A stretch of 32,000 nt of DNA, from NCBI GenBank assembly GCA_964536865.1, contig CAZHYN010000002.1:90001-122000 (forward strand), read 5' to 3'. Under the pieces are notes generated by a model. That model saw only the letters and a program-made list of their open reading frames with translations, was not told where the DNA came from and made no database searches. This stretch comes from an uncultured Planctomycetia bacterium. GTDB lineage: Bacteria; Omnitrophota; Gorgyraeia; Duberdicusellales; 4484-171. The position numbers and the translations under genes were made by a program. Positions 954-30,983 of this stretch are shown piece after piece (position 1 is the first letter of the stretch; every line of letters starts with the position of its first letter).

Positions 954-1775
954 TTATCTTTCTAAGTATGCTATTATCTTCTCTATTATTTCATCTGTAA
1001 CTTTAGAAGCAGCTAAATCTTTATTAAAATATACAAATGGTTTGCCTGAATCAGAAAGCTTAACAATTTCAGGCTCAACCGGTATTCTCCCTAAGAAAGG
1101 AACATTCAACTTTCTCGCTGAAGCTTCTGCCCCTCCCCTACCAAACAAATCTATCTCTTTTCCACAATAAGGACAAATGAAACCACTCATATTCTCTATT
1201 ATCCCAATTACAGGAACGTTTAACTCTTTAGCAAACAATACGCTCTTGCGGGAATCTAAAGTAGCTACATCCTGAGGAGTAGTAACAACTACTGCTCCAT
1301 TCAGGTTTGGTATAAGCTGACACACGCTTAAAGGTTCGTCTCCCGTACCTGGAGGAGAATCTATTACTAAATAATCAAGTCTTCCCCAATTTACATCAGA
1401 TAAGAATTGCTTAATTACGCCCATCTTAAGAGGGCCCCTCCATATAACAGGCTTCTCCTGGTCTTTGCCGACAAAAGCAAGGCTAATTGCCTTAAGATTA
1501 GGAAGCACTTTTATAGGCTCAATACCCTTATCTGAACCTGTAACCCTTGCTCCCTCTACTCCCAGCATTTTAGCAATATTAGGGCCATGAATATCCACAT
1601 CTAATATACCAATTTGCTTACCCCTAAGAGCTAAACTGTAGGCTAAATTTACAGCTATGGTAGTCTTTCCTACTCCACCTTTCCCACTTATAACAATAAT
1701 CTTATAGTTTATGCCGCACATTTTCTCCTTAAGACGTTCGTCTTGGGCTATCTTCTCTTCATTTATATTCTGCAT
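954..1775 (-). CDS. mrp: Mrp/NBP35/ApbC-family Fe-S cluster carrier ATPase
   Basis: 273 aa. Deviant Walker A SGKGGVGKTT. ENMSGFICPYCG carries the CxxC cluster-bridging motif typical of Mrp/NBP35. Confidence 0.85.
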   Translation of the reverse strand: MQNINEEKIAQDERLKEKMCGINYKIIVISGKGGVGKTTIAVNLAYSLALRGKQIGILDVDIHGPNIAKMLGVEGARVTGSDKGIEPIKVLPNLKAISLAFVGKDQEKPVIWRGPLKMGVIKQFLSDVNWGRLDYLVIDSPPGTGDEPLSVCQLIPNLNGAVVVTTPQDVATLDSRKSVLFAKELNVPVIGIIENMSGFICPYCGKEIDLFGRGGAEASARKLNVPFLGRIPVEPEIVKLSDSGKPFVYFNKDLAASKVTDEIIEKIIAYLER

Positions 1776-1799
1776 TACTTCCCTCCTGAAAACAGAAAG

Positions 1800-2660
1800 T
1801 TATGTAATCTCTTCCTCTAATCTATACCAGATTTTAGTAACCTCTCTCTTAGCTTCTGTATCCTGGTATTCTATAATTGTTTTTCCTTCTACCATAGCCT
1901 TTACTACAGACTCGTCAAATTTTATTTTGCCAATTATTGGAATATTATTAATCTGGCAGTAATTTTCTATTCTTTCAGTAACTTCAGTATTTAAATTAAA
2001 TTTATTTATTATCAGTTTAACAGAAACTCCAAAATGCTTAGCTACCTTAATAACTCTATCTGCATCATGCAAGCCTGATAAAGTAGGCTCAACCACCACT
2101 ATTGCATAATCTAAGCCTGATAAAGAAGCAATTACCGGACATCCTATCCCTGGTGAACCATCTATAATTATCAAACTACAATTTTCTTTCTCGGCTATTT
2201 GCTTTGCCTTTTCCCTGACCAAGCTAACGAGTTTGCCTGAGTTTTCTTCAGCTACTCCCAATCTGGCATGGATTAATTTACCAAATCTTGTATTAGATAT
2301 AAACCACTCTCCACAAATCTTTTCCTCCATTCTAATAGCCCCAGCAGGACAAACGTAGCTACAAAAACAGCAACCTTCACAGGAAATAGGGTCAACCACA
2401 AAATCCTCAGTTATAGCAGAAAAACGGCATACAGAGAGGCATTTTCCACAGCGTTGGCAAAACTTCTTATCAATCTCTGCGACTTTACCACTTTTAAACT
2501 TATGTCTTTCTATAATTTCAGGTTTAAGCAAAAGATGTAAATCTGCTGCGTCTACATCACAATCAGCAAAAACAGCATCCTTAGCCAAAGAAGCAAAACC
2601 AGCAGTAATCACAGTCTTACCTGTCCCGCCTTTTCCACTAATAATTCCAATCTGCTTCAT
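1800..2660 (-). CDS. MinD-superfamily P-loop ATPase with inserted 2x[4Fe-4S] ferredoxin domain
   Basis: 286 aa. Walker A SGKGGTGKTV. Two cluster motifs, CQRCGKCLSVC and CEGCCFCSYVCP, sit between the Walker A and the rest of the ATPase fold. 4-nt overlap with the upstream paralog. Confidence 0.85.
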   Translation of the reverse strand: MKQIGIISGKGGTGKTVITAGFASLAKDAVFADCDVDAADLHLLLKPEIIERHKFKSGKVAEIDKKFCQRCGKCLSVCRFSAITEDFVVDPISCEGCCFCSYVCPAGAIRMEEKICGEWFISNTRFGKLIHARLGVAEENSGKLVSLVREKAKQIAEKENCSLIIIDGSPGIGCPVIASLSGLDYAIVVVEPTLSGLHDADRVIKVAKHFGVSVKLIINKFNLNTEVTERIENYCQINNIPIIGKIKFDESVVKAMVEGKTIIEYQDTEAKREVTKIWYRLEEEIT

Positions 2661-3493
2661 TTTACCAATTCTTTAATCTTATAATAGAGAATTTTAAACT
2701 TTTCTCTATATTCAGGAAATCCTTCTATAAGAGGGATGCCTTTTGAATAAGCAACTGCTATTTCTTTTTTAAAAGGAATCTGCATAAGAATAGGGAGCTT
2801 CTTTTGTCTACAAAACTCATCTACTTTGTTATCACCCAATTCAGACCGATTAATAATTACACCAAAAGGAATCTTAAGTTTTCTCAACATCTCCACCGCT
2901 AAAGCCAAATCATTAAGGCCAAAAGGGGTAGGCTCAGTAACTAAGATACAAAAATCACTCCCCTTTACTGCTTCAATAACAGGGCAGGAAGTACCGGGAG
3001 GAACATCAATAATAACATTTTTACCAGAATTTATATGGGCTTTGACCTGGCTAATAAGGGGAGGAGAAATCGCTTCACCAATATTAAGCCTTCCTCCCAC
3101 AAATTCTAAATCGTTTTTTCTACCTATTTCAATAACACCTATTTCCCTCTCAACCTCTTTAATAGCTCCTTGAGGACAAAAGAAGCTGCAAGCTCCACAA
3201 CTATGGCAAAGTTCTTTAAAGACTAAAACATCCTTATTCTTTATTACCGCAATAGCTTTATAAGCACAGACTTCTGCACACTTTCCGCAGAAATTGCACT
3301 TCTCCTTATCTATCTGAGGAACCAGGACAAAAGCTTTTACTTTCTCTGTTATCTGAGGCTTTATAAATATATGAGAGTTAGGCTCCTCTACATCACAATC
3401 TAAAAGCTGGGCAGAAGGTAGAGAAAGAGCTAAATTTACAGCAATAGTAGTCTTTCCTGTTCCACCTTTACCTGAAGCAACTGAAATAACCAT
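2657..3493 (-). CDS. MinD-superfamily P-loop ATPase with inserted 2x[4Fe-4S] ferredoxin domain (paralog)
   Basis: 278 aa. Walker A SGKGGTGKTT. Cluster motifs CNFCGKCAEVC and CHSCGACSFFCP. No obvious Shine-Dalgarno sequence upstream of the ATG at 3493. Confidence 0.85.
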   Translation of the reverse strand: MVISVASGKGGTGKTTIAVNLALSLPSAQLLDCDVEEPNSHIFIKPQITEKVKAFVLVPQIDKEKCNFCGKCAEVCAYKAIAVIKNKDVLVFKELCHSCGACSFFCPQGAIKEVEREIGVIEIGRKNDLEFVGGRLNIGEAISPPLISQVKAHINSGKNVIIDVPPGTSCPVIEAVKGSDFCILVTEPTPFGLNDLALAVEMLRKLKIPFGVIINRSELGDNKVDEFCRQKKLPILMQIPFKKEIAVAYSKGIPLIEGFPEYREKFKILYYKIKELVK

Positions 3494-3592
3494 AGTTTAT
3501 ATAATTTGATGATAAGCCATCATTATCTGCTAAAACTTATAAGATATCCCCAAAGAGGTGGGTCTTCTGGAGGATAAAACCTCTTCTATCTA

Positions 3593-3805
3593 TTACCCAC
3601 GAACCATCCTGGTTCCACACTTAGGACAATTCAAGCTATAACAAGGAACACCTACCTGATGAGGCACTCTCATCCCACAACTAGGACAAACACAATTTCC
3701 TCCTGGACCTGCACCGGGACGATTTCCACCCATTCTACCTCTACCTCTACCACCACCGCTGCCTCTACCTCCTCCAATTGGGCCTCTTCCATCTCCAAAA
3801 GGCAT
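3593..3805 (-). CDS. Small Gly/Arg-rich protein with C-terminal Cys-rich zinc-ribbon
   Basis: 70 aa. N-terminus MPFGDGRGPIGGGRGSGGGRGRGRMGG resembles a DUF5320-type head. C-terminus CVCPSCG...CPKCG. RBS AAAGGAGGTAAAAG lies upstream of the ATG. Confidence 0.6.
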   Translation of the reverse strand: MPFGDGRGPIGGGRGSGGGRGRGRMGGNRPGAGPGGNCVCPSCGMRVPHQVGVPCYSLNCPKCGTRMVRG

Positions 3806-3819
3806 CTTTTACCTCCTTT

Positions 3820-4137
3820 TTAGGCTCTACGAGAATCATTGGAAAGTTTATCTATTCGAGCTAAAACAGAAAAAAGGGTTTCTCTTAACTTCCCAAGTTC
3901 ATCTTTAATTTCTTTTACTTCTCTATCTTTATTTGCTTTTTCAGAAGAAACCATCCTTATTGCCTGAAATGGACAAAATCTTGTGCATACTCCGCAACCT
4001 ACACATTTATCCTCATCAATCCAGGGCCTCCCTCTCACCACTCTTATAGCACCTTGGGGACAACTCGAAATACACTGAAGACAACCCCTGCATATACTTA
4101 AATTAACTACAGCTTTTTTAGATTCTCTAATGCTCAC
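3820..4137 (-). CDS. 2x[4Fe-4S] ferredoxin with C-terminal amphipathic helix
   Basis: 105 aa. Motifs CRGCLQCISSCP and CVGCGVCTRFCP. C-terminal heptad-like segment EVKEIKDELGKLRETLFSVLARIDKL. 11-nt overlap with the upstream gene. Confidence 0.8.
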   Translation of the reverse strand: MSIRESKKAVVNLSICRGCLQCISSCPQGAIRVVRGRPWIDEDKCVGCGVCTRFCPFQAIRMVSSEKANKDREVKEIKDELGKLRETLFSVLARIDKLSNDSRRA

Positions 4138-4453
4138 ACTTATCTGCGCTTTCTTTAAGAACCCCTTTTATAAAATCGTCTATTACCTTATTGATTTCTC
4201 CCTCAGCAAAAATAACCTGGATATTTTTTTCTCTGAATAACTCCTGAGCTCTTGGACCCATACCTCCGCAGATTATCACATTTACCTCCATCTTTGAAAG
4301 ATATTCAGGCAAAAAACCTGGAGTATGACCAGGATTAGAAATAGTCTTTCTTTGCTTTACGCTTTGGCCCTCAGCATCAACAATCTCATACTCAAGACAT
4401 CTTCCAAAATGAGAACTTACTAAATCTCCCTCTTTAGCTATGGCTATCCTCAT
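4127..4453 (-). CDS. NifX/NifB-C-terminal-like (dinitrogenase FeMo-cofactor-binding fold) protein
   Basis: 108 aa. MRIAIAKEGDLVSSHFGRC...VIICGGMGPRAQELF matches the usual pattern of this small-domain family. 4-nt overlap with the upstream gene. Confidence 0.8.
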   Translation of the reverse strand: MRIAIAKEGDLVSSHFGRCLEYEIVDAEGQSVKQRKTISNPGHTPGFLPEYLSKMEVNVIICGGMGPRAQELFREKNIQVIFAEGEINKVIDDFIKGVLKESADKCEH

Positions 4454-5079
4454 TCTTCTGCTCCTTTCTCTAATTCCTGAATTCTTTTGTTTATTAGGCT
4501 CATCTGTTGTTTTAAAAAATCTAACTGCTGTTTTAAAAATTGAAGCTCCTGCTCTTTAGAAACTTGAGGTTGATTAACCTGAGGATAAAATCCTGGTTGA
4601 AAAAACCTTCCTCTTCCCATACCCATACCTCTTCCCATCCCAAAGCCAGGCATAAACCCTGGAGTTGAATAAGGTATATTTTGTTGAGGATTATTAGCTA
4701 ATGCAGAAGGTCCCATCATTCCAAAGTGGCCGAGAACATTAGGGTTAGGAGTGGGGTTGAGCTGGTTTTTTTTAAATTTATCTATGGCCTCTCTTACAGT
4801 TAAACCAGCTAAACCGGTAATAACCTGTATACCTGAAGCCTGAAATACTCCAAAAGAATTAGGTCCCACATTACCAGTCAATACTGCATTTACCCCTTTA
4901 TTGGCTATAAACTGGGCACTGGATATTCCTGCTCCTGAAGGAGAACTAATATTAGGATTAGAGAGACTTTCAAAACTATCCTTTTCTGTATCATAAATTA
5001 TAAAATAAGCACATCTTCCAAAACGAGGATCAACCAGAGAATCTAAATTTCCCCCCTGAGAAGTCACACATATCTTCAT
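4450..5079 (-). CDS. NifX-like domain fused to a low-complexity linker and DUF5320-like coiled-coil tail
   Basis: 209 aa. The N-terminal ~110 aa (MKICVTSQGG...DPRFGRC...GAGISSAQFIANKGVNAVLTGNVGPNSF) are NifX-like. Then comes GFMPGFGMGRGMGMGRGRFFQPGFYP, followed by KEQELQFLKQQLDFLKQQMSLINKRIQELEKG. Confidence 0.75.
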   Translation of the reverse strand: MKICVTSQGGNLDSLVDPRFGRCAYFIIYDTEKDSFESLSNPNISSPSGAGISSAQFIANKGVNAVLTGNVGPNSFGVFQASGIQVITGLAGLTVREAIDKFKKNQLNPTPNPNVLGHFGMMGPSALANNPQQNIPYSTPGFMPGFGMGRGMGMGRGRFFQPGFYPQVNQPQVSKEQELQFLKQQLDFLKQQMSLINKRIQELEKGAEE

Positions 5080-5145
5080 AAAACACCCCTCCTTCTAAAA
5101 ATTGGAAATCCTAAATTCCAATAATTTGGAACAAAGTTATTAAAA

Positions 5146-5466
5146 TTAAGATTCTAACTCCTGGACTCTTTTCTCAATCTGCTCAAGTTGGGCCTTCAAC
5201 GCCTCTGCTTGCTGTTTTAATAGCTGTAACTCCTGTTCTTTAGTAAGTTGAGATACTCCGTAAGGGTCAAAAGGCAAAAATTGGCCTCTTTGAGCCTGGG
5301 GCATATTCTGCCAAGCCCAATTCGCCTGCCAGGTAGGCCAACTCCCGGTCATTAGATACTGAGCCCCTGGAGGCAAAGTCCCCCAACCCGGAGAAAAACC
5401 AAACCTCATCCAGCCAGGTAAACCGGTAAGATAATACATATACCTGTTGCCTCTTCCTCCAACCAT
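5146..5466 (-). CDS. DUF5320-like small protein (W/G/P-rich head plus coiled-coil tail)
   Basis: 106 aa. The head is rich in W, G, P and Q. The tail TKEQELQLLKQQAEALKAQLEQIEKRVQELES is paralogous to the tails at 4450-5079 and 5527-5754. RBS GGGAGGTG lies upstream. Confidence 0.65.
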   Translation of the reverse strand: MVGGRGNRYMYYLTGLPGWMRFGFSPGWGTLPPGAQYLMTGSWPTWQANWAWQNMPQAQRGQFLPFDPYGVSQLTKEQELQLLKQQAEALKAQLEQIEKRVQELES

Positions 5467-5526
5467 ACTAACACCTCCCTCTCTTAGTTTGCAGCTCAGA
5501 ATCAGTAGCCTTGATTTATAAATTAA

Positions 5527-5754
5527 TTATTGGCCTCTCTCTAATTCCTGAATTCGGGCATCTATATCCTTAAGTTGAGCTTCTAAGTTTTGTCTTAATT
5601 GCCTCAAATAACTTAATTCATCCTGCCCAAAAAAGAAAGGAGAAACCCCCCCGAGATAAGGTAATCCATATCCGTAAGAAGCAGGCCAATAAGGATAAAA
5701 ATAAGGCATCATAAACCAACCTGCTGGACCCATCCCAAAAGGCATAACCATCAC
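5527..5754 (-). CDS. DUF5320-like small protein (Met/aromatic/Pro-rich head plus coiled-coil tail)
   Basis: The maximal ORF is 75 aa from a GTG at 5754. The G-rich SD (GGGGGGTG) is best spaced for the ATG at 5745, which gives MPFGMGPAGWFMMPYFYPYW... (72 aa). The tail is ELSYLRQLRQNLEAQLKDIDARIQELERGQ. Confidence 0.65.
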   Translation of the reverse strand: MMVMPFGMGPAGWFMMPYFYPYWPASYGYGLPYLGGVSPFFFGQDELSYLRQLRQNLEAQLKDIDARIQELERGQ

Positions 5755-5783
5755 CCCCCTTTTAAAAATTAAAAGCTGAAAAA

Positions 5784-6017
5784 TTACCTCGTCTGCCCCA
5801 AAGATTGATTACTTCCGTAACCAAAAGGTGTATAACTAAAAGGATTTATTGGCCCATATATACCTGTCCACCACCATCTGGGAAGCCAGGGAAACCACCT
5901 GCAGAAAGGATAAGGATTGCCTCTTCCCCAGCCAAAGTAAGGAAAGTAAGGATAGCCGTAGCCAAAATAACCCCACTTCCAAAAACCAGGACCCCAAAAA
6001 TTTCTTCCTCTAGGCAT
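5784..6017 (-). CDS. Small extremely aromatic/Gly/Pro-rich basic protein (no coiled-coil tail)
   Basis: 77 aa with 9 W, 9 F, 9 Y, 14 G and 11 P, and no Asp or Glu. N-terminus is MPRGRNFWGPGFW. A strong RBS (AGAGGAGGTGA) lies ~8 nt upstream of the ATG. A Fur-type operator lies 35 nt upstream. Confidence 0.55.
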   Translation of the reverse strand: MPRGRNFWGPGFWKWGYFGYGYPYFPYFGWGRGNPYPFCRWFPWLPRWWWTGIYGPINPFSYTPFGYGSNQSLGQTR

Positions 6018-6051: not shown

Positions 6052-6068
6052 TTGAAAATCATTTTCAA
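6052..6068. promoter_or_regulatory. Fur-family operator (8-1-8 palindrome TTGAAAATcATTTTCAA)
   Basis: Perfect inverted repeat between the fur stop codon (6087) and the start of the 77-aa gene (6017). The inner 7-1-7 TGAAAATnATTTTCA differs by one base per half-site from the Bacillus-type Fur box TGATAATnATTATCA. It may overlap a -35 TTGAAA. Confidence 0.6.
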
Positions 6069-6086
6069 CAATATATTAAAAAAAAA

Positions 6087-6536
6087 TTAGCTACAATTTG
6101 AACATAAACCGTAAAAATGAATTTGATGAGTCTCTATTTTAAAATTATGTTTTTTAGATAATCTTTCTTCTAAACCCTTTATTAATTTTTGTTCATCCTC
6201 TACAAAATCTTTATAATCAATTATCTTCCCACACTTTCTGCAAATTAAATGGTGATGATGTTCTATACCTGGTCCCTGGCTTAATTCAAATCTGGCCCTT
6301 CCGTCTCCAAACTCATATTTCCTTACCAGGCCCATATTAAAAAGAAGTTCTAAAGTTCTGTAAACTGTAGTAAGCCCTATCCCCGGATACCGCTTATGAA
6401 CTTTCAGGAAAATATCCTCAGCACTAAGGTGCTTTTTTTCTTTAGTCAAAACATCCAAGATAACCTGCCTGGGAAAAGTCCACCTAAAACCACAACCTCT
6501 AAATCTTGCTTCTAACCATCTCGGGCCAAAAGGCAT
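6087..6536 (-). CDS. fur: Fur-family metalloregulator (Fur/PerR/Zur subtype not resolved)
   Basis: 149 aa. Winged-helix N-domain (TFPRQVILDVL...HLSAEDI...TVYRTLELL). His cluster HHHHLICRKCGK. Two CxxC pairs (CRKC, CSNC) form a structural Zn site. RBS AAGGAAGGAG lies upstream. Confidence 0.9.
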   Translation of the reverse strand: MPFGPRWLEARFRGCGFRWTFPRQVILDVLTKEKKHLSAEDIFLKVHKRYPGIGLTTVYRTLELLFNMGLVRKYEFGDGRARFELSQGPGIEHHHHLICRKCGKIIDYKDFVEDEQKLIKGLEERLSKKHNFKIETHQIHFYGLCSNCS

Positions 6537-6551
6537 AAAACTCCTTCCTTA

Positions 6552-6568
6552 TTGAAAATGATTTTCAA
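6552..6568. promoter_or_regulatory. Fur-family operator (second copy, TTGAAAATgATTTTCAA)
   Basis: Same 8-1-8 palindrome as 6052-6068, read from the opposite strand. It lies between the predicted -10 and the RBS of fur, a position that suggests autoregulation. An extra half-site-like ATTGAAA sits immediately upstream on the coding strand. Confidence 0.6.
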
Positions 6569-6578
6569 TTTCAATAAA

Positions 6579-6607
6579 ATAATACCATAATAAGCTTCTC
6601 CTGTCAA
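6579..6607 (-). promoter_or_regulatory. Sigma70-type promoter of the fur-led operon
   Basis: The minus strand reads TTGACA (6607-6602), a 17-nt spacer ending in TGg (extended -10), then TATTAT (6584-6579). The operator starts 10 nt downstream of the -10. Confidence 0.55.
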
Positions 6608-6873
6608 GAGTAAAAGACCTGGAGTTTCCCCAAAATTTTTAAGCCAGTAAAGAGAAGAGGAAGAGCTGTTTTTCGGTACTTTGCAATTTTCTTTCCTTCC
6701 ACGGCCACTCCATCTTATATTAAATAGAATTCTAAATATCCCCAAGGCTAAGCAATAGTGTTTGAAGGGTGATATCTGAAAGAATCTTTTTGCCTTTTCA
6801 TAAATCTTCTTAAGAAGAATATTTAATCCCAAATTTTTCATTACCTGCCTGACGGCAGGCCTGCCCGCTGATG

Positions 6874-6910
6874 TTTACCCCGCCCTTTCCTTGAAAGGGC
6901 GGGGTTCGGG
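6874..6910 (-). terminator. GC-rich hairpin 3 nt after the operon stop codon; short copy of a repeated palindromic element
   Basis: The minus strand reads CCCGAACC-CCGCCCTTT-caagg-AAAGGGCGG-GGTAAA, an 11-bp G/C-rich stem with a 5-nt loop. There is no U-tract. A second hairpin (CCTGCC tgac GGCAGG) lies at 6845-6860. It is homologous to the element at 21559-21627. Confidence 0.4.
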
Positions 6911-6912
6911 GG

Positions 6913-7956
6913 TTACTCTAAGTGATCCCCCTTTAGAATCTTTCTAACTAAGTCAAAAACCTCCTCAGGTTTTATTTCTCTAAGACATAAAAATCCCTTA
7001 TTACAGTTATGAGCTAAGCACTTTTTGCACCCTACATCTTTATGTAAGTAGAAAGACTTCTCTCCTAACGGCCTCCATCTTTGAGGAGAAAGACCTTGGT
7101 TGTTTCTTCCAAATATGGAGATAACAGGAGTATTTAAGCTAGCGGCAATGTGCACAGGACCACTATCATTGGAAATAAAAATATTGGCTCGCTTCAAAAG
7201 AGAAGCTAAAGAAGAAATATCTAATCTTCCTCTTAAGTCGATTAAATCAGGATGTTCCTCGATAAGAAGCTGGCCATAAACTATCTCTGATTTAGAAGTA
7301 ATTACTGCAATTTTAGGATAAAATTCTTCTTTTAGTAATCTTATCAAAGATGAAAAGTGTCTTTGAGGCCATCTCTTGGATGGGCAAGAAGCAGAAGGAT
7401 GAATTACAAAGAGTAAATCATCTTCTTCTACTCCTCTACTTTTAAGTAACTGCTCTATATAGCGTTCCTTTTCTTCTTTTATGGGAAAATATAGAGACTT
7501 ATCAATTATCTTAATATCTATCTCTCTGAGAATATCTAAAGTATACTCCAACTCATGCTTCTGGCCTTTATCTTTAGTATGGGGAATTCTTTTAGTAAGA
7601 AGAAAACCACATTTTTTATCCCAGCCAACTCTAAAGGGAATTCCTGCAAAGTAGGTAATTAGGTGTACTCTATTTGTAGGATGCAAAATTATTGCCCAAT
7701 CAAATTTTTTTCTTCTCAACCATAAAGAAAATTTTGCAGAAGAAAACCAGCCTTTATGTCTTCCGTATTTATCATAAATGATTACCTCATCAAGATAAGG
7801 ATTTCCCTCTAATATATCCTTAGTGTAAGGCCGGCACATAAAAGCAATCCAACTATTAGGAAAGGCTATTCTTAAGTTCTTAATCACTGGCGTAGAAAGG
7901 ACTACATCTCCAATTCTGTCTGTACGAACAATCAATATTTTTTTAACTCCTCTCAT
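6913..7956 (-). CDS. Glycosyltransferase family 9 (LPS heptosyltransferase-like)
   Basis: 347 aa. N-terminus ILIVRTDRIGDVVLSTPVIKNL and the C-terminal block FISNDSGPVHIAASLNTPVISIFG are typical GT9 motifs. Confidence 0.8.
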   Translation of the reverse strand: MRGVKKILIVRTDRIGDVVLSTPVIKNLRIAFPNSWIAFMCRPYTKDILEGNPYLDEVIIYDKYGRHKGWFSSAKFSLWLRRKKFDWAIILHPTNRVHLITYFAGIPFRVGWDKKCGFLLTKRIPHTKDKGQKHELEYTLDILREIDIKIIDKSLYFPIKEEKERYIEQLLKSRGVEEDDLLFVIHPSASCPSKRWPQRHFSSLIRLLKEEFYPKIAVITSKSEIVYGQLLIEEHPDLIDLRGRLDISSLASLLKRANIFISNDSGPVHIAASLNTPVISIFGRNNQGLSPQRWRPLGEKSFYLHKDVGCKKCLAHNCNKGFLCLREIKPEEVFDLVRKILKGDHLE

Positions 7957-8872
7957 AGGATAATAACTTTCTTACTGCCTCTATTACTCTATGAGGGGAA
8001 ATCTTCATGCAATCGGAATTATAGGGACAAATTGATCTTCCACAGGGAGAACACAATAGATTTTCATTACGTAGAACTATAGATTTAGTAGACCAAGGAC
8101 CGTAACGAAGAGAAGATGTGGGGCCAAAGATAGCAACGATAGGTAGATCAATATAACTGGCTAAATGAAGAAGAGCGGAATCCACTCCTAAAAAAAGTAT
8201 AGCATAGTTTTCTAAAAGAAAGAATACTTCACTCATTGTAGTTTTACCTACCAAATCTATAACTCCTCTTATTTTAAGAATGTCTTTATAAAACTCTCTA
8301 TCTTCATTTCTCCCTACTATCACTGAAGGATAATCTTTAACTAAATCCATAATTACTTCCTTAAGGTATGGGTAACGTTTAACAGCAGAGCGAGAGGAAC
8401 AGCCCACGAATATCGAAGGAGGTATATTTTCTCGATGCCATTTTTCCTCCTCTTGGGGGGTTAATAAGAAACTACTCTTTTTAATAACTGTATTTTGGGA
8501 GGTAATTTTTCTCACTAAACTGAGATACTCATCTTTCATATGCATATCTTTGCAGGACTTCCTCCAAAACGGTGTTCTCCTCCTAATCCCCAAAAGAAAA
8601 GGCAGGAGAGAGTTTTTAAAATCAATTATTAAATCATACTTGCCCTTTAGATCATAACAGAATCTCATCTTCTCTCTTATTCTCCACCTTTTATCAAACA
8701 CAGCAACATCATCGATAAAATTATTTCTCAGTAGAAACTCCTTAGTCTTAGGAGAAACTATGGCAGTAATCTTAGCTTGAGGATAGGAGGATTTAACTTT
8801 ATCTAACACAGGGAGAGCTAAGATTGTATCTCCTAAATTAGTAGGAAAATTGAAAATTATTCTTTCAGGCAT
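7943..8872 (-). CDS. Glycosyltransferase family 9 (heptosyltransferase-like), divergent
   Basis: 309 aa. NLGDTILALPVLDKV and GVDSALLHLASYIDLPIVAIFGPT are GT9-type motifs. 14-nt overlap with the downstream gene. Confidence 0.7.
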   Translation of the reverse strand: MPERIIFNFPTNLGDTILALPVLDKVKSSYPQAKITAIVSPKTKEFLLRNNFIDDVAVFDKRWRIREKMRFCYDLKGKYDLIIDFKNSLLPFLLGIRRRTPFWRKSCKDMHMKDEYLSLVRKITSQNTVIKKSSFLLTPQEEEKWHRENIPPSIFVGCSSRSAVKRYPYLKEVIMDLVKDYPSVIVGRNEDREFYKDILKIRGVIDLVGKTTMSEVFFLLENYAILFLGVDSALLHLASYIDLPIVAIFGPTSSLRYGPWSTKSIVLRNENLLCSPCGRSICPYNSDCMKISPHRVIEAVRKLLSYERS

Positions 8873-9864
8873 TGGAGAATCTCTTTTGCCTCTCGGAAAA
8901 CCTCCTCAGCAGATACATTCTTCATGCAAATATTATTCCTACAATTCAATTTAAAACAGGGGACTTTGCATTCCTTATTCTTATAAATTAATCTAATCAA
9001 TCCTTTACCTCGTGGTCCACTGATAGAAGGATGAGTAGGACCGAATATAGCTATGAGAGGAGTCCCCACACTTGCAGCTAAGTGCATTATTCCAGTATCT
9101 GCAGAAATAAACAAATTAACTCTCTTTAAAACTGCTCCTAACTCTCTTAAGCTTGTTCTACCTACCAAAAGATAAGGCTTGTTCTTCATTAGCTTCTTTA
9201 TCTGGAAAGCTAAATCTAAATCATCTCTTGTGCCAGTAATTATAACCGAAGCATCTAACTCCTCTATTAACTTATCCCCTAACTGAGCGAAATACTCTTT
9301 TGGCCACATCTTAAGGGCCCAGTTAGCCTTAGGATGGAGAACTACTTTTAATCTACTATTTAAAATAGACGAAGGAAGAATTGAACCTACTTGTTCGATT
9401 TCTTGAGGCAAGAGAAAAAATTCTGGTTCTTTCTTACTTACTTTGAGACCTATACTCTCTATCAAATTTAAATAGTAATCCATCTTATGAGTACCTTTGG
9501 GGGGAAGGGAAATCTTCCTATTTATAAAAGTAATTTTTTTTGATTCGTATCCGTAAATATCTTTGATGTGTGCTAACTTACACATCAACGATTTAGTAAA
9601 GGAAGGTTTAAGTAGAAAGGCAGTATCAAACTCTTTCTTTGATATCCTCTTGGTAATTTTTAAATTAGAGAGCAAATCTCGGTGAGAAGAAAAAGTTATA
9701 ATCTCGTCCACAAAAGGACTGTGGATAAAAATCTGCTCCACTCTTTTATGAATTAAAATACCTATCCAACAATGAGGTTTATTTTCTTTTAAACTACGTA
9801 AGAGAGGGGTAGCCATAAGAGAATCTCCTATCCAGTTAGGTAGAAATACCAAAATCTTTTTCAT
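8857..9864 (-). CDS. Glycosyltransferase family 9 (heptosyltransferase II/WaaF-like)
   Basis: 335 aa. ILVFLPNWIGDSLMATPLLRSL and FISADTGIMHLAASVGTPLIAIFGPT. The specific acceptor cannot be assigned from sequence alone. Confidence 0.75.
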   Translation of the reverse strand: MKKILVFLPNWIGDSLMATPLLRSLKENKPHCWIGILIHKRVEQIFIHSPFVDEIITFSSHRDLLSNLKITKRISKKEFDTAFLLKPSFTKSLMCKLAHIKDIYGYESKKITFINRKISLPPKGTHKMDYYLNLIESIGLKVSKKEPEFFLLPQEIEQVGSILPSSILNSRLKVVLHPKANWALKMWPKEYFAQLGDKLIEELDASVIITGTRDDLDLAFQIKKLMKNKPYLLVGRTSLRELGAVLKRVNLFISADTGIMHLAASVGTPLIAIFGPTHPSISGPRGKGLIRLIYKNKECKVPCFKLNCRNNICMKNVSAEEVFREAKEILQCLKE

Positions 9865-9866
9865 AC

Positions 9867-10964
9867 TTAATTACTGTGGATTAAAACCTCCTCATATACC
9901 TGATAAGTAGACTCCCCCATCCTCTCTAAACTAAATCTCTCCTCCACCCTCTTTTTAGCGTTAGCTACCATCCGCCTCCTTAAATCGTTATCCTCTAAAA
10001 GAAGTTCGATAGCCTCTAAGATTTCTTTAGAATCACTCCTCTTTAAAACGACACCTGTTACTCTATTTTCTACTATCTCCTTTAAAGCGCCAGAATTTGT
10101 TACTATTACAGGGATACCCACATACTGAGCTTCAACAACTGAAAATCCAAAAGGCTCTCCCTCACTTAAGGAGAGGAAAATATCTAAATTTCTCAATACT
10201 ACTAAAGACGACAGTTTCTTTAAAAAGACAACTCTATTATCTACACCTAAATTCTTACTCATTTCCTTTAATTTTGCCTCTTCTTTCCCCTCTCCTAAAA
10301 TTAAAGTAACTGCCTTAGGATACTTCTTCAGAATAAGAGGCATAGTTTGGATAAGCAAAGAAATATTCTTTTCTGGAGCCAAGCGAGATATCATCCCTAT
10401 AACAGGATAACCATTAAAGCCTACAGGTAAGACCTCTTCCTTAATAGAATTATCTATTTGAGAAAAAGAATTGATATCAATACCGTTATAAATTACTCGT
10501 ACTTTCTTAGGATCAATCTTAAGATTTCTGATTAAGTGGTCTTTTACATAATTACTCACTGCTATGGTTCTTAACCCTGCGAAGGGAAATAGTCTTCTAA
10601 ATAGATGGGGTCGATAACATCCATGGAAAGTGGATACATAAGGAATTTTTCTAGTTGCCCATAAACGATGAGCTAAAGATTGAGTTACTCTAGTGTTAGC
10701 ATGAATAATGTCTACTTTCCTCTTTTTAAGAAATCTACTTAATATGTGAAACGATTTAGCTATCTTAGGAGAAAGAATAGACTTTGTAGCTATAGGAAGG
10801 TTTAAGACTACCGTATTACTTACTCCTACCAACTTTTTCTCCCATTCTCCTCCACTGGTTGCTACAATAACAAAATTCTTCCTTGCTAAAAATTTCGCTA
10901 AATTTATTACATAGCGGGGGATACCTCCCACATTAAGATGAGTAGTAAGAAGGAGAATCCTCAT
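9867..10964 (-). CDS. Glycosyltransferase family 4 (GT-B, retaining)
   Basis: 365 aa. N-terminus MRILLLTTHLNVGGIPRY. EX7E-type motif EGEPFGFSVVEAQYVGIPVIVT. Confidence 0.8.
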   Translation of the reverse strand: MRILLLTTHLNVGGIPRYVINLAKFLARKNFVIVATSGGEWEKKLVGVSNTVVLNLPIATKSILSPKIAKSFHILSRFLKKRKVDIIHANTRVTQSLAHRLWATRKIPYVSTFHGCYRPHLFRRLFPFAGLRTIAVSNYVKDHLIRNLKIDPKKVRVIYNGIDINSFSQIDNSIKEEVLPVGFNGYPVIGMISRLAPEKNISLLIQTMPLILKKYPKAVTLILGEGKEEAKLKEMSKNLGVDNRVVFLKKLSSLVVLRNLDIFLSLSEGEPFGFSVVEAQYVGIPVIVTNSGALKEIVENRVTGVVLKRSDSKEILEAIELLLEDNDLRRRMVANAKKRVEERFSLERMGESTYQVYEEVLIHSN

Positions 10965-13012
10965 CTTTCTATAATCTCTTTGATCTTCCTAAAAACTTCT
11001 TGGGGGCTAATACTTTTCATACAAGTATTTAACCGGCACCTTGGCTTATAACAGAAGGAGCAAGGAAGTTGTTTATATAATACATAAAGATTTCTGCTCT
11101 CTACTATATGACGTTTAGGATCGGTAGGACCAAATAGAGCGACAGTCTCTACTCCTAATGCTGCAGAAATATGCAGAGTAGCAGTATCTTGACATACAAA
11201 CACTTTAAGGATACTTAAGAGTACTATTAGTTCTTTTAGATTGGTCTTGCCACAGAGATTGATAACTCCATCTTTAAAGTTTTTTCTTATATGATTTGCT
11301 GCTTCCCTGCTATGAGAATCTCCTACTAAAACTATCTTATAAGAAGGGAATTCTTTCCTTATAAATTCTATAAGTTTAATAATATTCACTATAGGCCAGT
11401 TCTTTGTCTTCCATCTCACCGAAGCAGAAACACTTATCCCAATCAAATTTTTCTCTCCGGATAACCCTAACTTCTCTATAGAGGTAAGGGATGGCTTCTT
11501 CATAATCAATTTTCTTTCCTTTATCTCGATCCCCAATAACCGTAAGATTCTATTTTGTGACTGAAGAGGGTTGATTCTTTCTTTGGGAAACTTTACCGAG
11601 GATGTAAGAAGAAAACCAAGCTTACGGGAGAAACCGAAAGACTTCTGAGGAAAACTTAAAAAAGCAATAAGATGTGTAGCTAGATTATTCTGCAAATCTA
11701 TTATATAATCAAAACTCTCTCTCCGTAAACTATTAGAAATTTTAATAATCCTCTTCATCTTCTTATAATCTCTATCTATCCCTATTACCTTATCCACAAA
11801 GGGAAACTCATAAAACAGAGAAGCATATTTTTTTAAAGTCAAAACTACCAGTTTACTTTTAGGAAAACTCTCCTTTATCGCCTTAAGTGAAGGAATAGCT
11901 AACACTACATCACCCAAGGAAGAAACTTTTATAACTAAAATTCTTTTAAACTCTATAGCTTCTCGGTAAGTCTGAAGAATTTTACTATAACAGTTTTGGA
12001 GGGTATAAAGCGTTTCTACTTTCTTGCGCCCATTATAAGCCAGCTTCCTTGCTAAAGATGGATTATCTATCAGAGTTAAAATAGCTTCCTTTATCTGGTT
12101 GGAATCACCAGGTAAAACTAAAATGCCGTTTTTTTTATCTTCTACAATTTCCTCCAGAGCACCTACCTTGGTAGCAATTACTGGAACTCCACTAGCAAAT
12201 GCTTCTACCACCACCCTCCCAAAAGACTCCTTAGCAACGGAAGGAACTACCATAAGAGAGGCTTTTTCTAATATTCTCTCTACGTTAGACTGATACCCCA
12301 AAAATTCCACATGATAATCTAAAGATAAGCGTCTCACTAAATTCTTTAAATACTCAAAGTAATTCCATTTAGACTTCTCCGCCTCTCCTACGATAAGAAG
12401 ATTCAGATAAGGTTTCACTCTTATAACCTTATGAAATGCCTGAATAAGATACTCAAAGCCCTTAGAGGGAGATATTCTTCCTATACTTACTATTATATTG
12501 GAAGCTAACCTCTGAGAAGGATCTTTAAAAGTAAATCGAGATAGATCTACCCAACGACTGATTATTCTAATTTTTTCTTCACTGACACCGAAATTTTTCA
12601 TCATATGACGAGCAATCACCTTGGAAGGACATATAACAAATTTACCCCACCCCATTACCTTACTAAATGTATGTTTAGAATAGGCTCCATGAGCAGTAGT
12701 GATAAAGGGAATATCTCTCCCTCGAGTAGCAAAAAAAGTAACCCATGCAGGAACACGAGAGCGAGCATGAACTATCTCTGCCTTCTCTTGCTGAATAATT
12801 TTTCTCACTTTTCTTATCAGCCGAAGAGTAAGAGGGGATTTTTTATGTATGGGAAGATTATAGCAAGTTACTCCTTCTTCTTTTAATTTTGCGATTAGCC
12901 TTCCTCCCCCAGAAATAACTACCATCTCCTCCTTAAAATACTTAGCTAAATCTAAAACTCCTCGTTCCACTCCTCCTAAATCCATTTTGGGAAGAACTTG
13001 AATAACCTTCAT
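10961..13012 (-). CDS. Bifunctional GT4-GT9 fusion glycosyltransferase
   Basis: 683 aa. Residues 1 to ~350 are GT4 (GGVERGVLDL..., ESFGRVVVEAFASGVPVIAT). Residues ~357 to 683 are GT9 (ILVIKVSSLGDVVLAIPSLKAI..., VCQDTATLHISAALGVETVALFGPT). Confidence 0.8.
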   Translation of the reverse strand: MKVIQVLPKMDLGGVERGVLDLAKYFKEEMVVISGGGRLIAKLKEEGVTCYNLPIHKKSPLTLRLIRKVRKIIQQEKAEIVHARSRVPAWVTFFATRGRDIPFITTAHGAYSKHTFSKVMGWGKFVICPSKVIARHMMKNFGVSEEKIRIISRWVDLSRFTFKDPSQRLASNIIVSIGRISPSKGFEYLIQAFHKVIRVKPYLNLLIVGEAEKSKWNYFEYLKNLVRRLSLDYHVEFLGYQSNVERILEKASLMVVPSVAKESFGRVVVEAFASGVPVIATKVGALEEIVEDKKNGILVLPGDSNQIKEAILTLIDNPSLARKLAYNGRKKVETLYTLQNCYSKILQTYREAIEFKRILVIKVSSLGDVVLAIPSLKAIKESFPKSKLVVLTLKKYASLFYEFPFVDKVIGIDRDYKKMKRIIKISNSLRRESFDYIIDLQNNLATHLIAFLSFPQKSFGFSRKLGFLLTSSVKFPKERINPLQSQNRILRLLGIEIKERKLIMKKPSLTSIEKLGLSGEKNLIGISVSASVRWKTKNWPIVNIIKLIEFIRKEFPSYKIVLVGDSHSREAANHIRKNFKDGVINLCGKTNLKELIVLLSILKVFVCQDTATLHISAALGVETVALFGPTDPKRHIVESRNLYVLYKQLPCSFCYKPRCRLNTCMKSISPQEVFRKIKEIIER

Positions 13013-13013
13013 C

Positions 13014-14822
13014 TTAAAGAAGCACCTCTTTTGCTTTCTGTAGTTGAGAGTAATTATACTCCCATAAACTTTTCTGAGGAGCTTGAAAAGTAAAATTATT
13101 GTAAGGAAAAACTAAAAAGTTTAGAAAATCATCCTTTAAAGAATTCAAAAAATTTAGATGACGGGATCTCATCTTCTCCAGAAGAACACTCACTGTAAGT
13201 TTACCTATACTAAGGCTCTCAGAAATCATGGAAACACTATCGCTAGAGACAAAAACAATCTCACTTAAAGAAACAAACGTTTCCATTATAAAAGGATAAT
13301 TTTTTTCTCTAACTACTATTAAAGACTCTAAATTAGGAAAGTTAGCTAAACTCTCTCTAATTATCTTCTCTACAGAAAGAGAAGTACGTCTTGAAGTAGA
13401 AACAAGTAGTTTATAGCCTTCAGTAAAGGAGAACTCTTTTAACCTACTCAGAAAAATTTTCAAATTCTCACAGAACTCCTCCTCTCTATGAAGAAAATTT
13501 CCTAAGAACAAAGAAATTTTCTTACACTCTCCTAAATTAAGAAATCTTTTGCCTTCCTCCACTTTTTTTTGAAGATCCTTAAAATGCGTTAATGCTCCTT
13601 TTATCTGCACTACATTCTTTCCTCTAACTCCATCATGATGAGGGACTATAACTAAATCGAATTTAGAAAGAGCTACATTGGGTTTTAAAATGCAACATGA
13701 CTTTGCTCCTAAACTTTTAGAATAAATAGCACATACCGGAGCACACAAAGAACCAGCACTCACTACTAAATCAAAAAAATTCTTCGACATAAACTCAGCA
13801 GTGTAGGAATCAAGAAAAAGTTTTAGACATCTACCACATCCTAAGCAATTCTTTGTTGAGAAAAAAGCAAAAATTTCTGCTAATAATCTGGCAAATCTAT
13901 TTTTGTAATTTATCTCCAATATATCTTTTTCTATAGAATAAGGAAGCTCCTCAAGCACATCTACCAAACTTAAAGACTGCTTAAGGTGACCGACCTTCCC
14001 ATCGGTAAGAATGAGAATTCTCCTCTTCTTTTTTCTCTTAAACCTTTTATACCACCAAAGATAGGACCAAGGGTAAGAAGTTAAGAAATCTTCAAAAACT
14101 TCGTTTATTTCTCTTAATATTTCTCTACTCTCCCTTCCTTCACAATCTATAGGCTTCTCTATAATTCCTATATGATAGTTACCTTCTCTATATCCAAAAG
14201 CAGGATAAATTTTTCTTCCAAATTTCTTAGCTAAATACACTGCCCCCCCAGGAGTAGGAACAGGGATATTAAAAAAATCTACAATCTCAGAATTTTTCTC
14301 TGCTCCATGATCCGCTACCATCCCTACCCACCAGTTTTTTTTAAGTAGTTTTACAACTTCTTTTAAAGAAGTGCATATCTTTAAACTACTCTTCTCTCTA
14401 AGTTCATTTAAAAATTTATTCATAGCAGGGTTTCTCTGCTCTCTAACAAAGATAGCGTATTTAAACCTGTCTGCTAAACAACTATTATAAAGCTCCCAAC
14501 TCCCCTCATGGATGCCTACTAAAATATTTCCCCAAGGAGGCAAAGCTTCTCGGAATTGAATGCGAACTCTATTTTTTAATCTATCTACGATAAGTGTTTC
14601 TATAAAACTTATCCCAAAAGAGATAAAACTCTTTCTGATGATGGAAAATATAGACTTATTAGTTTTTTTAGGAAATACTTGCTTTAAGTTTATAAAGGCA
14701 ATTCTCTTTTTTTTCTTATCAAAGTAGTAAAATCCTAACCCTACTACTTTCCCTAAGGCCAAAGAAAGAGATAGAGGTAATAATCTAACCAACCTATAGA
14801 CTAACCTTATCAGTAAGTACAT
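13014..14822 (-). CDS. Lipid A late acyltransferase (LpxL/HtrB family) fused to an ELM1/DUF1022-like domain
   Basis: 602 aa. The N-terminal ~260 aa have a TM anchor and the HX4E catalytic dyad (GIHEGSWE) of the LpxL/LpxM family. The C-terminal ~340 aa begin RRILILTDGKVGHLKQSLSLVDVL, which resembles ELM1-family proteins. Confidence 0.7.
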   Translation of the reverse strand: MYLLIRLVYRLVRLLPLSLSLALGKVVGLGFYYFDKKKKRIAFINLKQVFPKKTNKSIFSIIRKSFISFGISFIETLIVDRLKNRVRIQFREALPPWGNILVGIHEGSWELYNSCLADRFKYAIFVREQRNPAMNKFLNELREKSSLKICTSLKEVVKLLKKNWWVGMVADHGAEKNSEIVDFFNIPVPTPGGAVYLAKKFGRKIYPAFGYREGNYHIGIIEKPIDCEGRESREILREINEVFEDFLTSYPWSYLWWYKRFKRKKKRRILILTDGKVGHLKQSLSLVDVLEELPYSIEKDILEINYKNRFARLLAEIFAFFSTKNCLGCGRCLKLFLDSYTAEFMSKNFFDLVVSAGSLCAPVCAIYSKSLGAKSCCILKPNVALSKFDLVIVPHHDGVRGKNVVQIKGALTHFKDLQKKVEEGKRFLNLGECKKISLFLGNFLHREEEFCENLKIFLSRLKEFSFTEGYKLLVSTSRRTSLSVEKIIRESLANFPNLESLIVVREKNYPFIMETFVSLSEIVFVSSDSVSMISESLSIGKLTVSVLLEKMRSRHLNFLNSLKDDFLNFLVFPYNNFTFQAPQKSLWEYNYSQLQKAKEVLL

Positions 14823-25302: not shown

Positions 25303-25926
25303 CTATTCACCTTCTTTAACTCCTAAAGCCTTAAATAATTTCCTTAAAGATTCTAAATCAGGAAAAAATAAAAGGCAACCCCCAAAATCCATATCTCTTA
25401 CTTTTAATTCTGTTCTTATAAAAATGGCTTCATCGCTATGCTGAGCTATATGGATGAAAAAAAAGTCCATTATTGCTCCCACCATATCCATAGCTAATGA
25501 GGGGGTAGTATACATTATAGTAAAACCAGTCATATCAGAAAGAACATTCATATAAGCTCCTACTAAAATGTTAACCATTTCTCTCAAAGAGGAAAGGAAC
25601 ATGCCATCGTTAAGGTCTACTTCCTCAGGAGGTTTCCCTAACAGAGTGCTCCCTAGGATCTTACCCTCTTGAGGTGCTAAAAGAAAGAATACCCTACCAG
25701 AGATTTCTCCCTCTACCCCAATATCTAAAACAAAATATAAATCTTCCGGATTACCCAAAACTTTATGGAGAGACTCTAAAGGTACTAATTTTGTCTCAGG
25801 GAGAGTAATCTCTACTTTGCAATTAAGAAGCTCAGCTAAAGCAGTAGCGGATCTACCTGCTCCGATAGTCCCTACTTCTTTAAGAACATCTAACTGGTTC
25901 GAAGAAATTTTTTTAGTTTCATCCAT
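25303..25926 (-). CDS. cheC: CheC-family protein (first active-site motif degenerate, second intact)
   Basis: 207 aa. Site 1 is DVLKEVGT...(22)...P, with Asn replaced by Thr. Site 2 is SSLREMVN...(22)...P and is intact. 8-nt overlap with cheB. Confidence 0.75.
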   Translation of the reverse strand: MDETKKISSNQLDVLKEVGTIGAGRSATALAELLNCKVEITLPETKLVPLESLHKVLGNPEDLYFVLDIGVEGEISGRVFFLLAPQEGKILGSTLLGKPPEEVDLNDGMFLSSLREMVNILVGAYMNVLSDMTGFTIMYTTPSLAMDMVGAIMDFFFIHIAQHSDEAIFIRTELKVRDMDFGGCLLFFPDLESLRKLFKALGVKEGE

Positions 25927-27447: not shown

Positions 27448-27462
27448 GTTGAGAGATTTCTC

Positions 27463-27837: not shown

Positions 27838-27866
27838 ACTAACCTCCTTTTTAACCTCGCCCTTTT

Positions 27867-28712: not shown

Positions 28713-28716
28713 GCTT

Positions 28717-28980: not shown

Positions 28981-29003
28981 TATCCACCTCCTTAGAAAAT
29001 AGT

Positions 29004-29032: not shown

Positions 29033-29057
29033 TAGAAAAATCATTTTTAACTATAAA

Positions 29058-30977: not shown

Positions 30978-30983
30978 AATGAT

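Follow-up and report, generated by a model that had tools for sequence, protein, structure and literature searches.

The question raised by this locus is whether two identical short palindromes that bracket the gene of a Fur-family regulator are operators, which protein would bind them and what the second site, which lies behind the gene, would control. The locus was found in a stretch of 32,000 nt from an uncultured Planctomycetia bacterium that the GTDB lineage places in the Omnitrophota (assembly GCA_964536865.1, contig CAZHYN010000002.1, positions 90,001 to 122,000). We refer to this stretch as the window and all coordinates are given relative to it. The palindrome in front of the regulator gene, here called fur, is designated O1 and the one behind it O2. 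On the same strand O2 is followed by a cluster of genes for DUF5320-like, orange-protein-like, MinD-ferredoxin and Mrp proteins. Our analysis suggests that both palindromes are operators of the repressor encoded between them. This protein would repress its own gene and the cluster with Fe(II) as co-repressor, and O2 would act as a roadblock to transcription. We consider this overall explanation to be probably correct.

On the forward strand O2 (6052-6068) reads TTGAAAATCATTTTCAA and O1 (6552-6568) reads TTGAAAATGATTTTCAA; on the fur strand, which is the reverse strand, O1 is TTGAAAATCATTTTCAA and O2 is TTGAAAATGATTTTCAA. Each palindrome is a perfect 8-1-8 inverted repeat and the two are reverse complements of each other. 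An earlier note on this DNA had reported two identical palindromes bracketing fur and no further perfect copy. Sequence, coordinates and symmetry were all confirmed, and a third copy of the 17-mer was absent from the window even when up to 3 mismatches were allowed. Based on the base composition we would expect 1.1e-4 exact copies per window. Shuffled sequences contained on average 1.18 loose matches (at most 3 mismatches) per window, and the count of loose matches alone is not significant; the signal is the presence of two exact copies, both of them intergenic. There are 5 perfect 8-1-8 palindromes of whatever sequence in the window. The remaining 3 are unrelated to O1 and O2, occur as single copies and lie within long open reading frames (ORFs). 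A larger repeat or a mobile element was rejected as an explanation, since O1 and O2 share no identity beyond the operator itself (a direct repeat of 18 nt) and the flanks are not repeated. We also rejected an element acting at the RNA level: Rfam gave no match below E 0.5, its sole match lies off the palindromes at 6838-6906, and a loop of 1 nt cannot form a hairpin.

The fur gene (6087..6536, reverse strand) encodes 149 amino acids (aa) and is preceded by a strong promoter on the same strand. The -35 hexamer TTGACA (6602..6607) is separated by a 17-nt spacer from an extended -10 element (6579..6587), which consists of TG at 6587-6586, one base and TATTAT at 6584-6579. The promoter is an 11/12 match to the sigma-70 consensus and the top scorer of the 3.6-kb region that was scanned. 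O1 begins 10 nt past the -10 hexamer and ahead of the fur ribosome-binding site. O2 is located in the 69-nt gap that separates the fur stop codon (6089-6087) from the start codon (6017) of the first small-protein gene. Both the strong promoter with its TGn extension 10 nt before the operator and the second site in the 69-nt gap had been described before, and both descriptions hold. An extra TTGAAA half-site (6569..6574, reverse strand), read from the sequence, abuts O1 and gives TTGAAATTGAAAATCATTTTCAA. It is kept in the related loci L001 and L007 and may be a third half-site as in overlapping Fur boxes.

The palindromes were then compared across relatives. A protein-guided scan with one genome per species was used, to which a metagenome scan added 80 loci. 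A position weight matrix (PWM) was made from the collected sites, and the scanned loci were those with a fur relative of at least 48% identity. The protein-guided scan recovered the locus in Candidatus Omnitrophota metagenome-assembled genomes (MAGs) at 99-100% identity, and orthologues with 56-64% identity were found in Atribacterota, another member of the Omnitrophota, a Spirochaetota MAG and an unclassified bacterium. All of these loci show TTGACA, 17 nt, TAtAAT, a few nt, the palindrome aTGaAAAyCATTwTCAA and then TAAGGAGG. The same order, with 3-10 nt between TAtAAT and the operator, was observed in 54/56 loci of the subfamily; TTGACA is nearly invariant at the -35 position and the -10 is kept as TAtAAT. 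A site of at least 12 bits was present at the O1 position in 54/56 loci with enough upstream sequence. At the O2 position, 15-36 nt past the fur stop codon, the same threshold was reached in 25/59 loci, and the two-operator layout around fur is kept in about 40% of the subfamily. The background of the PWM in the same loci was 2e-5 per position or 0.003 per search window. At a threshold of 14 bits or more we counted 84 fur-flanking matches over 442 kb compared to only 6 elsewhere, and 2 of these 6 are really fur-flanking too. The Logan contig L011 carries both exact sites and the 99% identical relative L001 has one mismatch in O2; no further site was found in the ~20 kb added from contigs of this species (at most 17.5 kb each). 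In three related Omnitrophota genomes the genes upstream of fur differ, and the alignment starts ~10 nt before the -35 and continues across the -10 and the operator to include the ribosome-binding site. This start of the alignment and the position-specific conservation rule out both a chance palindrome and a dispersed repeat. The sites track the fur subfamily almost one-to-one, which is the signature of autoregulation. Judged from the sequence comparison, it is well supported that the palindromes represent evolutionarily conserved Fur-family operators of a known type.

Another conserved feature is the order of the genes. In most orthologous loci with enough downstream sequence (Omnitrophota, Atribacterota, Nitrospirota-type and other metagenomic contigs) fur is syntenic with the cluster, and behind most fur genes of the subfamily we found DUF5320, orange-protein-like, MinD-ferredoxin and Mrp genes. 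What comes directly after fur in the orthologous loci is usually a gene for a genuine DUF5320 protein (Pfam 1e-23 to 1e-29). Beside Fur relatives at 44% identity or less the cluster is absent. The conservation of O1 (54/56) and O2 (25/59) and the synteny of the cluster with the subfamily thus lend good support to the earlier suggestion that the regulator would repress itself and control the cluster. Our literature search found no publication linking a Fur-family regulator to an orange-protein/DUF5320 cluster.

The box itself has already been published. The Fur box of Geobacter, Desulfuromonas and Desulfovibrio (dFUR-box) has the 17-bp consensus WTGAAAATNATTTTCAW, obtained from the upstream regions of feoAB operons and of fur (Rodionov et al. 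2004, PMC545781), and O1 and O2 match it with 0 mismatches each. This is a closer, exact precedent than the Bacillus boxes. The delta-proteobacterial box is a 7-1-7 inverted repeat and is likewise found upstream of fur. Its definition is mainly based on feoAB operons, whereas no feoAB is in view here and the target would be the orange-protein/DUF5320 cluster; its hosts are delta-proteobacteria and not Omnitrophota and other uncultured phyla, and one of the two boxes described here is intercistronic. The 7-1-7 boxes of Bacillus subtilis Fur, PerR and Zur are TGATAATnATTATCA, TTATAATnATTATAA and TCGTAATnATTACGA (PMC545781), and the comparison with them in the earlier note was accurate against these consensus sequences. 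The window box shares the architecture of the B. subtilis Fur box with one mismatch per half-site, where position 4 is A instead of T, and differs from the PerR box TTATAATNATTATAA at two positions per half-site. As in the case of these three regulators we would expect an autoregulated repressor with an operator overlapping the promoter or the transcription-start region. A place of MTH1175-like/P-loop ATPase genes in the Fur regulon of Rodionov 2004 was not confirmed, with 0 occurrences in the text (PMC545781). Across L002-L092 both operators extend to a palindrome of 21-23 bp (tTA, 17-mer, TAa). On the coding strand most O1 sites have C as their central base (28 C, 17 G), while most O2 sites have G (22/27). 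The variants are AAAACCATTTT for O1 and AAAATGGTTTT for O2, i.e. the two sites tend toward an inverted relative orientation.

The regulator has the winged-helix and dimerisation domains of the Fur family, since it matches PF01475 with an E-value of 2.2e-35 (profile positions 3-121 of 121 aligned) and 26 solved Fur-family structures, the best of which is Fur 9ire_A (6e-29). The NCBIfam scores were 131 bits for Bacillus-type Fur (NF051892, cutoff 220), 95.6 bits for enterobacterial Fur (NF006999, cutoff 146), 89.7 bits for Clostridial PerR and 37 bits for Zur (cutoff 167). For the metal ligands we used B. subtilis PerR as the reference, the sequence of which was verified against 2FE3. PerR has a Cys4 zinc site and the regulatory ligands His37, Asp85, His91, His93 and Asp104 (PMC4866751). 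The pairs C99/C102 and C145/C148 of the regulator align with PerR C96/C99/C136/C139 and are invariant in the subfamily. The five regulatory positions are filled by H36, E84, H94, H96 and D107, which are invariant as well; four of them are identical to PerR and Glu replaces Asp85. Zur proteins have no equivalent of His37 and carry Cys at the Asp85 position (PMC4866751). As H36 is present and position 84 is Glu and not Cys, a Zur identity was excluded; the Zur model also stayed far below its cutoff. The subfamily comprises 2,646 proteins at E <= 1e-20, and the best 120 of these 2,646 are all at least 58% identical. Its members carry generic names only, and the few organism-named matches come from Omnitrophica, Nitrospirae and unclassified MAGs.

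The mechanism that we propose to account for the observed sites, their conservation and the synteny predicts binding by the 149-aa protein, its effector and the roadblock. O1 would cover roughly +4 to +20 of the strong sigma-70 promoter, and an occupied O1 would block initiation. The blocked transcript would comprise fur and, by read-through, the DUF5320/orange-protein-like/MinD-ferredoxin/Mrp cluster. O2 would add a further level of repression that is specific to the cluster, most likely as a roadblock in the path of polymerases that started at the fur promoter; this would keep the cluster tightly off and at the same time allow basal synthesis of fur. Once the metal is lost or oxidised, fur and the cluster would both be derepressed.

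Several observations speak against this mechanism. None of the NCBIfam Fur, PerR or Zur models was reached at its cutoff by the 149-aa protein. The residue at the position of PerR Asp104 is an invariant Asp (Asp107), whereas Fur proteins typically have Glu there. In the window O2 overlaps a weak match to a promoter (TTGAAA, 18 nt, GATATT; 9/12). We found no feoAB or classical iron-uptake gene with a box in ~90 kb of the species and 442 kb of related loci; the case for iron consequently comes from the identity of the box and the ranking of the profile models. Finally, repression by Fur of a cluster rich in iron-sulfur (Fe-S) proteins would be counter-intuitive if the job of the cluster was storage.

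The promoter-like match at O2 is the basis of the alternative that survives best. The small-protein genes could have a promoter of their own, with O2 as its operator and the -35 TTGAAA inside the site, so that fur and the cluster would be two units repressed in parallel. In addition to the 9/12 match of the window, which starts in O2, L006 shows TTGAAA, 16 nt and TATATT (10/12), and the 69-nt gap exceeds that of the operonic loci. The 26 loci with O2, however, have a median of only 7-8/12, which is no better than shuffled sequence (scores of 9 or above were found in about 25% of the shuffles), compared to at least 10/12 at 52/55 O1 sites. On these grounds a sigma-70 promoter at O2 was rejected. 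Furthermore, a 6-nt indel between the window and L001 breaks the -10 candidate, and the distance from O2 to the ribosome-binding site is typically only 6-15 nt. The overlap of O2 with a possible -35 that had been pointed out earlier is present in the window, but the claim found no support at the O2 sites of the orthologues. A separate promoter appears possible but on balance not probable.

A different signal accompanies O2. In the window a run of nine Ts (6078..6086, reverse strand) directly follows the fur stop codon, 9 nt upstream of O2. A run of 6 or more Ts (6-9 T) was observed on the coding strand at -16..-9 from the operator in 21/26 loci at O2, compared to 2/55 at O1. It also co-occurs with the operator: we detected it in 20/25 loci with O2 and in 5/34 loci without (Fisher p 6e-7). 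As an intrinsic terminator the T-run was rejected, as the 40 nt before it fold at a mean z of -0.33 and a plausible hairpin precedes it in only 2-4 loci (e.g. L024, L092). No terminator was found in the 69-nt gap from fur to the next gene. In loci without O2 the fur stop codon is followed, mostly after 10-30 nt, by the ribosome-binding site and the DUF5320 start codon, and this short gap indicates a plain operon. The lack of a canonical promoter at O2 and the strand-specific T-run suggest an intercistronic roadblock and not the operator of a promoter. The simplest and most likely reading of the sequences is that fur and the cluster would form one transcription unit with O2 as an intercistronic operator. 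Repression by roadblock is known for PurR, GalR, ArsR, CcpA and CodY according to the passages on natural roadblocks in a review (PMC10310618). The natural roadblocks in these passages have an operator between genes, downstream of a promoter and without a promoter of its own, and the same applies to O2. Among the natural roadblocks named there we saw no example from the Fur family. The term-matched passages of this review likewise describe no conserved T-tract at a set distance of 8 nt ahead of the site, and 'U-rich' has 0 occurrences. The T-tract could conceivably destabilise the stalled complex, with DNA bending or a part in an unusual promoter as alternatives.

The next alternative concerns the signal to which the regulator responds. 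Fe(II) is our first-ranked co-repressor because delta-proteobacterial Fur proteins use the identical box; we would give it about the same weight as all other effectors taken together. The overall similarity and the box favour a Fur, and the invariant Asp107 keeps a PerR-like mechanism alive. In a PerR-type peroxide or redox sensor the Fe(II)-protein would repress, metal-catalysed oxidation of His would release it and the cluster would serve Fe-S trafficking, induced after oxidative damage. In addition to Asp107, which takes the place of PerR Asp104, all five ligand positions are filled, and Glu at the Asp85 position is also found in B. licheniformis BL00950 (PMC4866751). In Fur proteins the Asp104 position is occupied by Glu (Glu108 in B. 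subtilis Fur), and this residue has been proposed to govern the access of H2O2 (PMC4866751); two solved Fur structures also have Glu at the position equivalent to Asp107. The 89.7 bits for Clostridial PerR and the redox control of the homologous Desulfovibrio orp operons by OrpR (PMC8359166) point in the same direction. On the other hand both Fur models scored higher (131 and 95.6 bits), the box is the dFUR-box and not TTATAATNATTATAA, and no rubrerythrin, ahpC or other peroxide gene adjoins the sites in the loci examined. An Asp is also present in L008, a distant Fur-like protein with a classical Fur box. We regard a peroxide sensor as rather unlikely, at roughly one chance in several. Unlike the Bacillus regulators, the protein does not reach the equivalog cutoffs and combines Fur-like overall similarity with a PerR-type Asp ligand. 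The caution of the earlier note regarding the metal was justified.

It is also conceivable that a different, global Fur paralogue binds the sites and that the local Fur-like protein is merely one of its targets. The agreement of the box with the general delta-proteobacterial Fur box would fit this explanation. The sites, however, track the local fur subfamily (54/56) and are nearly absent elsewhere in 442 kb, and the recognition-helix region of the local protein (GLTTVYRTLE) is conserved together with the box. Regulation by a global paralogue is improbable in our view.

We further considered a DNA loop enclosing fur, through which O1 and O2 would cooperate and for which the 500-bp spacing would be functional. 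The identical sites, their inverted relative orientation as indicated by the central base (mostly C at O1, G at O2) and the one-sided A/T-tract beside O2 could be taken in its favour. The distance between the palindrome centres (6060 and 6560 in the window) is 500 bp both here and in L011. The 'exactly 500 bp' of the earlier note is thus correct for the window, but the distance is 499 bp in the 99% identical L001, 508-552 bp in other lineages and 681 bp in one locus. Essentially the spacing equals the length of fur plus two short untranslated stretches. Rayleigh tests with 21 spacings gave a weak peak around ~10-10.5 bp (p 0.002-0.02 before correction). However, the peak is broad (9.5-11 bp), several periods were tried and the loci are related, and we judged the helical phasing unconvincing. 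More than half of the orthologous loci (34/59) lack O2 altogether. The looping proposed earlier did not hold up against the variable spacing, the weak phasing and the loci without O2, and we give it a very low probability.

The idea that the palindromes are chance AT-rich sequence or copies of a dispersed repeat without a regulatory role can practically be dismissed: the genome has 36% G+C and shuffles yield about one loose match (at most 3 mismatches) per window, but exact copies are expected at 1e-4, the flanks are unrepeated, Rfam finds nothing at the sites and the position-specific conservation across phyla already refutes it.

The cluster behind O2 starts with the gene for a 77-aa protein (5784..6017, reverse strand; start MPRGRNFWGP) that is rich in Trp, Gly, Phe, Tyr, Pro and Arg. 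It has no Pfam match, is 93% identical in L001 and occupies the slot of the DUF5320 gene in the orthologous loci. Together with the genes for DUF5320-like proteins of 75 and 106 aa, which gave sub-threshold DUF5320 matches only, it forms a group of three small ORFs within 5146-6017. In all three proteins Trp, Phe, Tyr, Gly, Pro and Arg are extremely frequent, and two of the three proteins end in a coiled-coil. We consider the three ORFs to be real genes because they are 91-96% conserved in L001. The putatively controlled genes behind the 77-aa gene (954..5754, reverse strand), which start with those for the 75-aa and 106-aa proteins, were characterised by domain searches. A 209-aa protein (4450-5079) has an orange-protein-like Nitro_FeMo-Co domain fused to a DUF5320 tail with a coiled-coil; the best structure for its N-domain is the Desulfovibrio gigas orange protein 2WFB (1.7e-23). 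A second Nitro_FeMo-Co protein of 108 aa (4127-4453) corresponds to positions 265-364 of the MrpORP model, i.e. to the Di-Nase domain, and PF02579 accordingly occurs twice in the cluster. Further members are, in order, a 105-aa ferredoxin with two [4Fe-4S] motifs, a 70-aa zinc ribbon (3593-3805), two MinD-ferredoxin ATPases of 278 and 286 aa (CbiA/ParA plus Fer4 inserts) and an Mrp/NBP35 ATPase of 273 aa (954-1775). The Mrp ATPase covers positions 3-250 of 365 of the MrpORP model with 360 bits, which is below the equivalog level (cutoff 450). Judged from these matches the P-loop and Di-Nase domains of MrpORP appear to be encoded by two different genes. An FmdB-type zinc ribbon at 677-943 closes the cluster of the window.

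By its domains the cluster corresponds to the genes that encode the Desulfovibrio 'orange protein complex' (Orp3, Orp4, Orp8, Orp9), and its role is probably the trafficking of Fe-S or other metal clusters. The ORP, MinD-ferredoxin and Mrp genes are homologous to the orp genes of Desulfovibrio vulgaris Hildenborough (Orp3, Orp4, Orp8, Orp9/MrpORP), although the Desulfovibrio MrpORP is a two-domain protein and the P-loop and Di-Nase genes are separate here. The Desulfovibrio orp operons are controlled by sigma-54 and the Fe-S redox sensor OrpR, and the orpR gene is flanked by two 17-bp palindromes (PMC6345978, PMC8359166). In both systems a dedicated regulator gene lies between two 17-bp palindromic sites (PMC8359166). 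OrpR, a sigma-54 enhancer-binding protein with an Fe-S PAS domain, activates two divergent operons, whereas the locus described here has a Fur-family repressor, sigma-70 and one direction of transcription. As Desulfovibrio uses a sigma-54 activator, this would be a case of non-orthologous regulator replacement. We can also see a resemblance to the thioferrate storage protein IssA of Pyrococcus furiosus (PMC5524996), which combines an IPR003731/Nitro_FeMo-Co domain with a disordered tail in which Gly, Arg, aromatic residues and Pro are enriched. The likeness is one of composition: a similar residue content was seen in the 209-aa protein and in the separate proteins of 75-106 aa, but unlike in IssA the tails end in a coiled-coil (DUF5320). 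The architecture of the 209-aa protein is intermediate between the Desulfovibrio ORP and the Pyrococcus IssA. High levels of iron and sulfide induce IssA (PMC5524996), the reverse of what classical repression by Fur would bring about.

The regulator shares a motif with the proteins of the cluster. Many orthologues carry an N-terminal extension of the form MPRGDGTGP..WWHG.FRGCGYR, which in the window reads MPFGPRW..FRGCGFR. The N-terminal motif of the downstream DUF5320 proteins, MPRGDGTGP.G.GPMTGR..GYCAG, is the same motif (e.g. L033, L032, L042, L024). The DUF5320 profile matched residues 1-20 of an orthologous Fur weakly (14 bits, E 0.1). Within the window the fur, 77-aa (5784-6017) and 70-aa (3593-3805) ORFs begin with MP(R/F)G, and the 75-aa ORF (5527-5754) has MPFG from residue 4.

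From the T-tract and this extension a more far-reaching explanation can be put together, which we offer as a tentative and less likely one. The arrangement of fur stop codon, T7-9, ~8 nt, operator and ribosome-binding site would be a repressor-dependent, hairpin-independent terminator, and the signal would at the same time be the state of the orange-protein/DUF5320 machinery. Fur at O2 would stall polymerases from the fur promoter, and the weak rU:dA hybrid near the active site would release the transcript, with fur being expressed while the cluster stays off. The DUF5320-like extension would sense the binding of a partner or a cluster instead of free Fe(II).

The operators themselves are ordinary, as they represent textbook Fur biology and a published consensus. 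Less ordinary are the dedicated link to the orange-protein/DUF5320 genes, the second operator with a T-tract and without a promoter, and the DUF5320-like N-terminus of the regulator. In Omnitrophota, Atribacterota, Nitrospirota and further uncultured anaerobes a large Fur subfamily appears to be firmly tied to the orange-protein/DUF5320/MinD-ferredoxin/Mrp cluster. The function of the cluster has been a puzzle since its description in Desulfovibrio, and a Fur-type switch offers a testable cue, namely iron limitation or oxidation. If true, the module of T-tract and operator would be a simple natural design that uncouples the expression of a repressor gene from its operon.

Outside the two positions around fur, other strong boxes (L024:5275, L047:446, L047:1766) precede genes for a CGGC-domain protein, a DUF364/DUF4213 'heavy-metal chelation' protein and an FmdB-type zinc ribbon. 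The CGGC-domain gene sits directly upstream of fur, and a weak box precedes a BrnQ-type transporter gene.

On the upstream side of the fur unit a perfect 13-bp GC-rich hairpin (ACCCCGCCCTTTC / GAAAGGGCGGGGT; 6877..6905, reverse strand) is located just after the upstream heptosyltransferase gene. A smaller GC-rich inverted repeat at ~6848-6863 was read by eye and was not reported by the repeat finder. The two are probably a terminator that separates the lipopolysaccharide genes from the fur unit and insulates the fur promoter. One Logan assembly annotates a gene for an ORF of 109 aa (6512..6841, reverse strand) that runs across the fur promoter, O1 and the start of fur. Since its sequence is conserved in neither L001 nor L007 and matches no Pfam family, we judged it to be probably spurious. 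The genes around the fur unit and its cluster are of ordinary kinds; their labels were assigned by matching ORF lengths to Pfam-annotated genes of the related contigs L014 and L015, and one heptosyltransferase was checked directly with Pfam. Beside the fur unit there is a long run (6913-15825) with heptosyltransferase-type (GT9) and other glycosyltransferase-like genes among its members. A chemotaxis cluster at 25303-31979 comprises CheA, CheR, CheB, CheD, CheC/X, a gene for a methyl-accepting chemotaxis protein (MCP) and response regulators.

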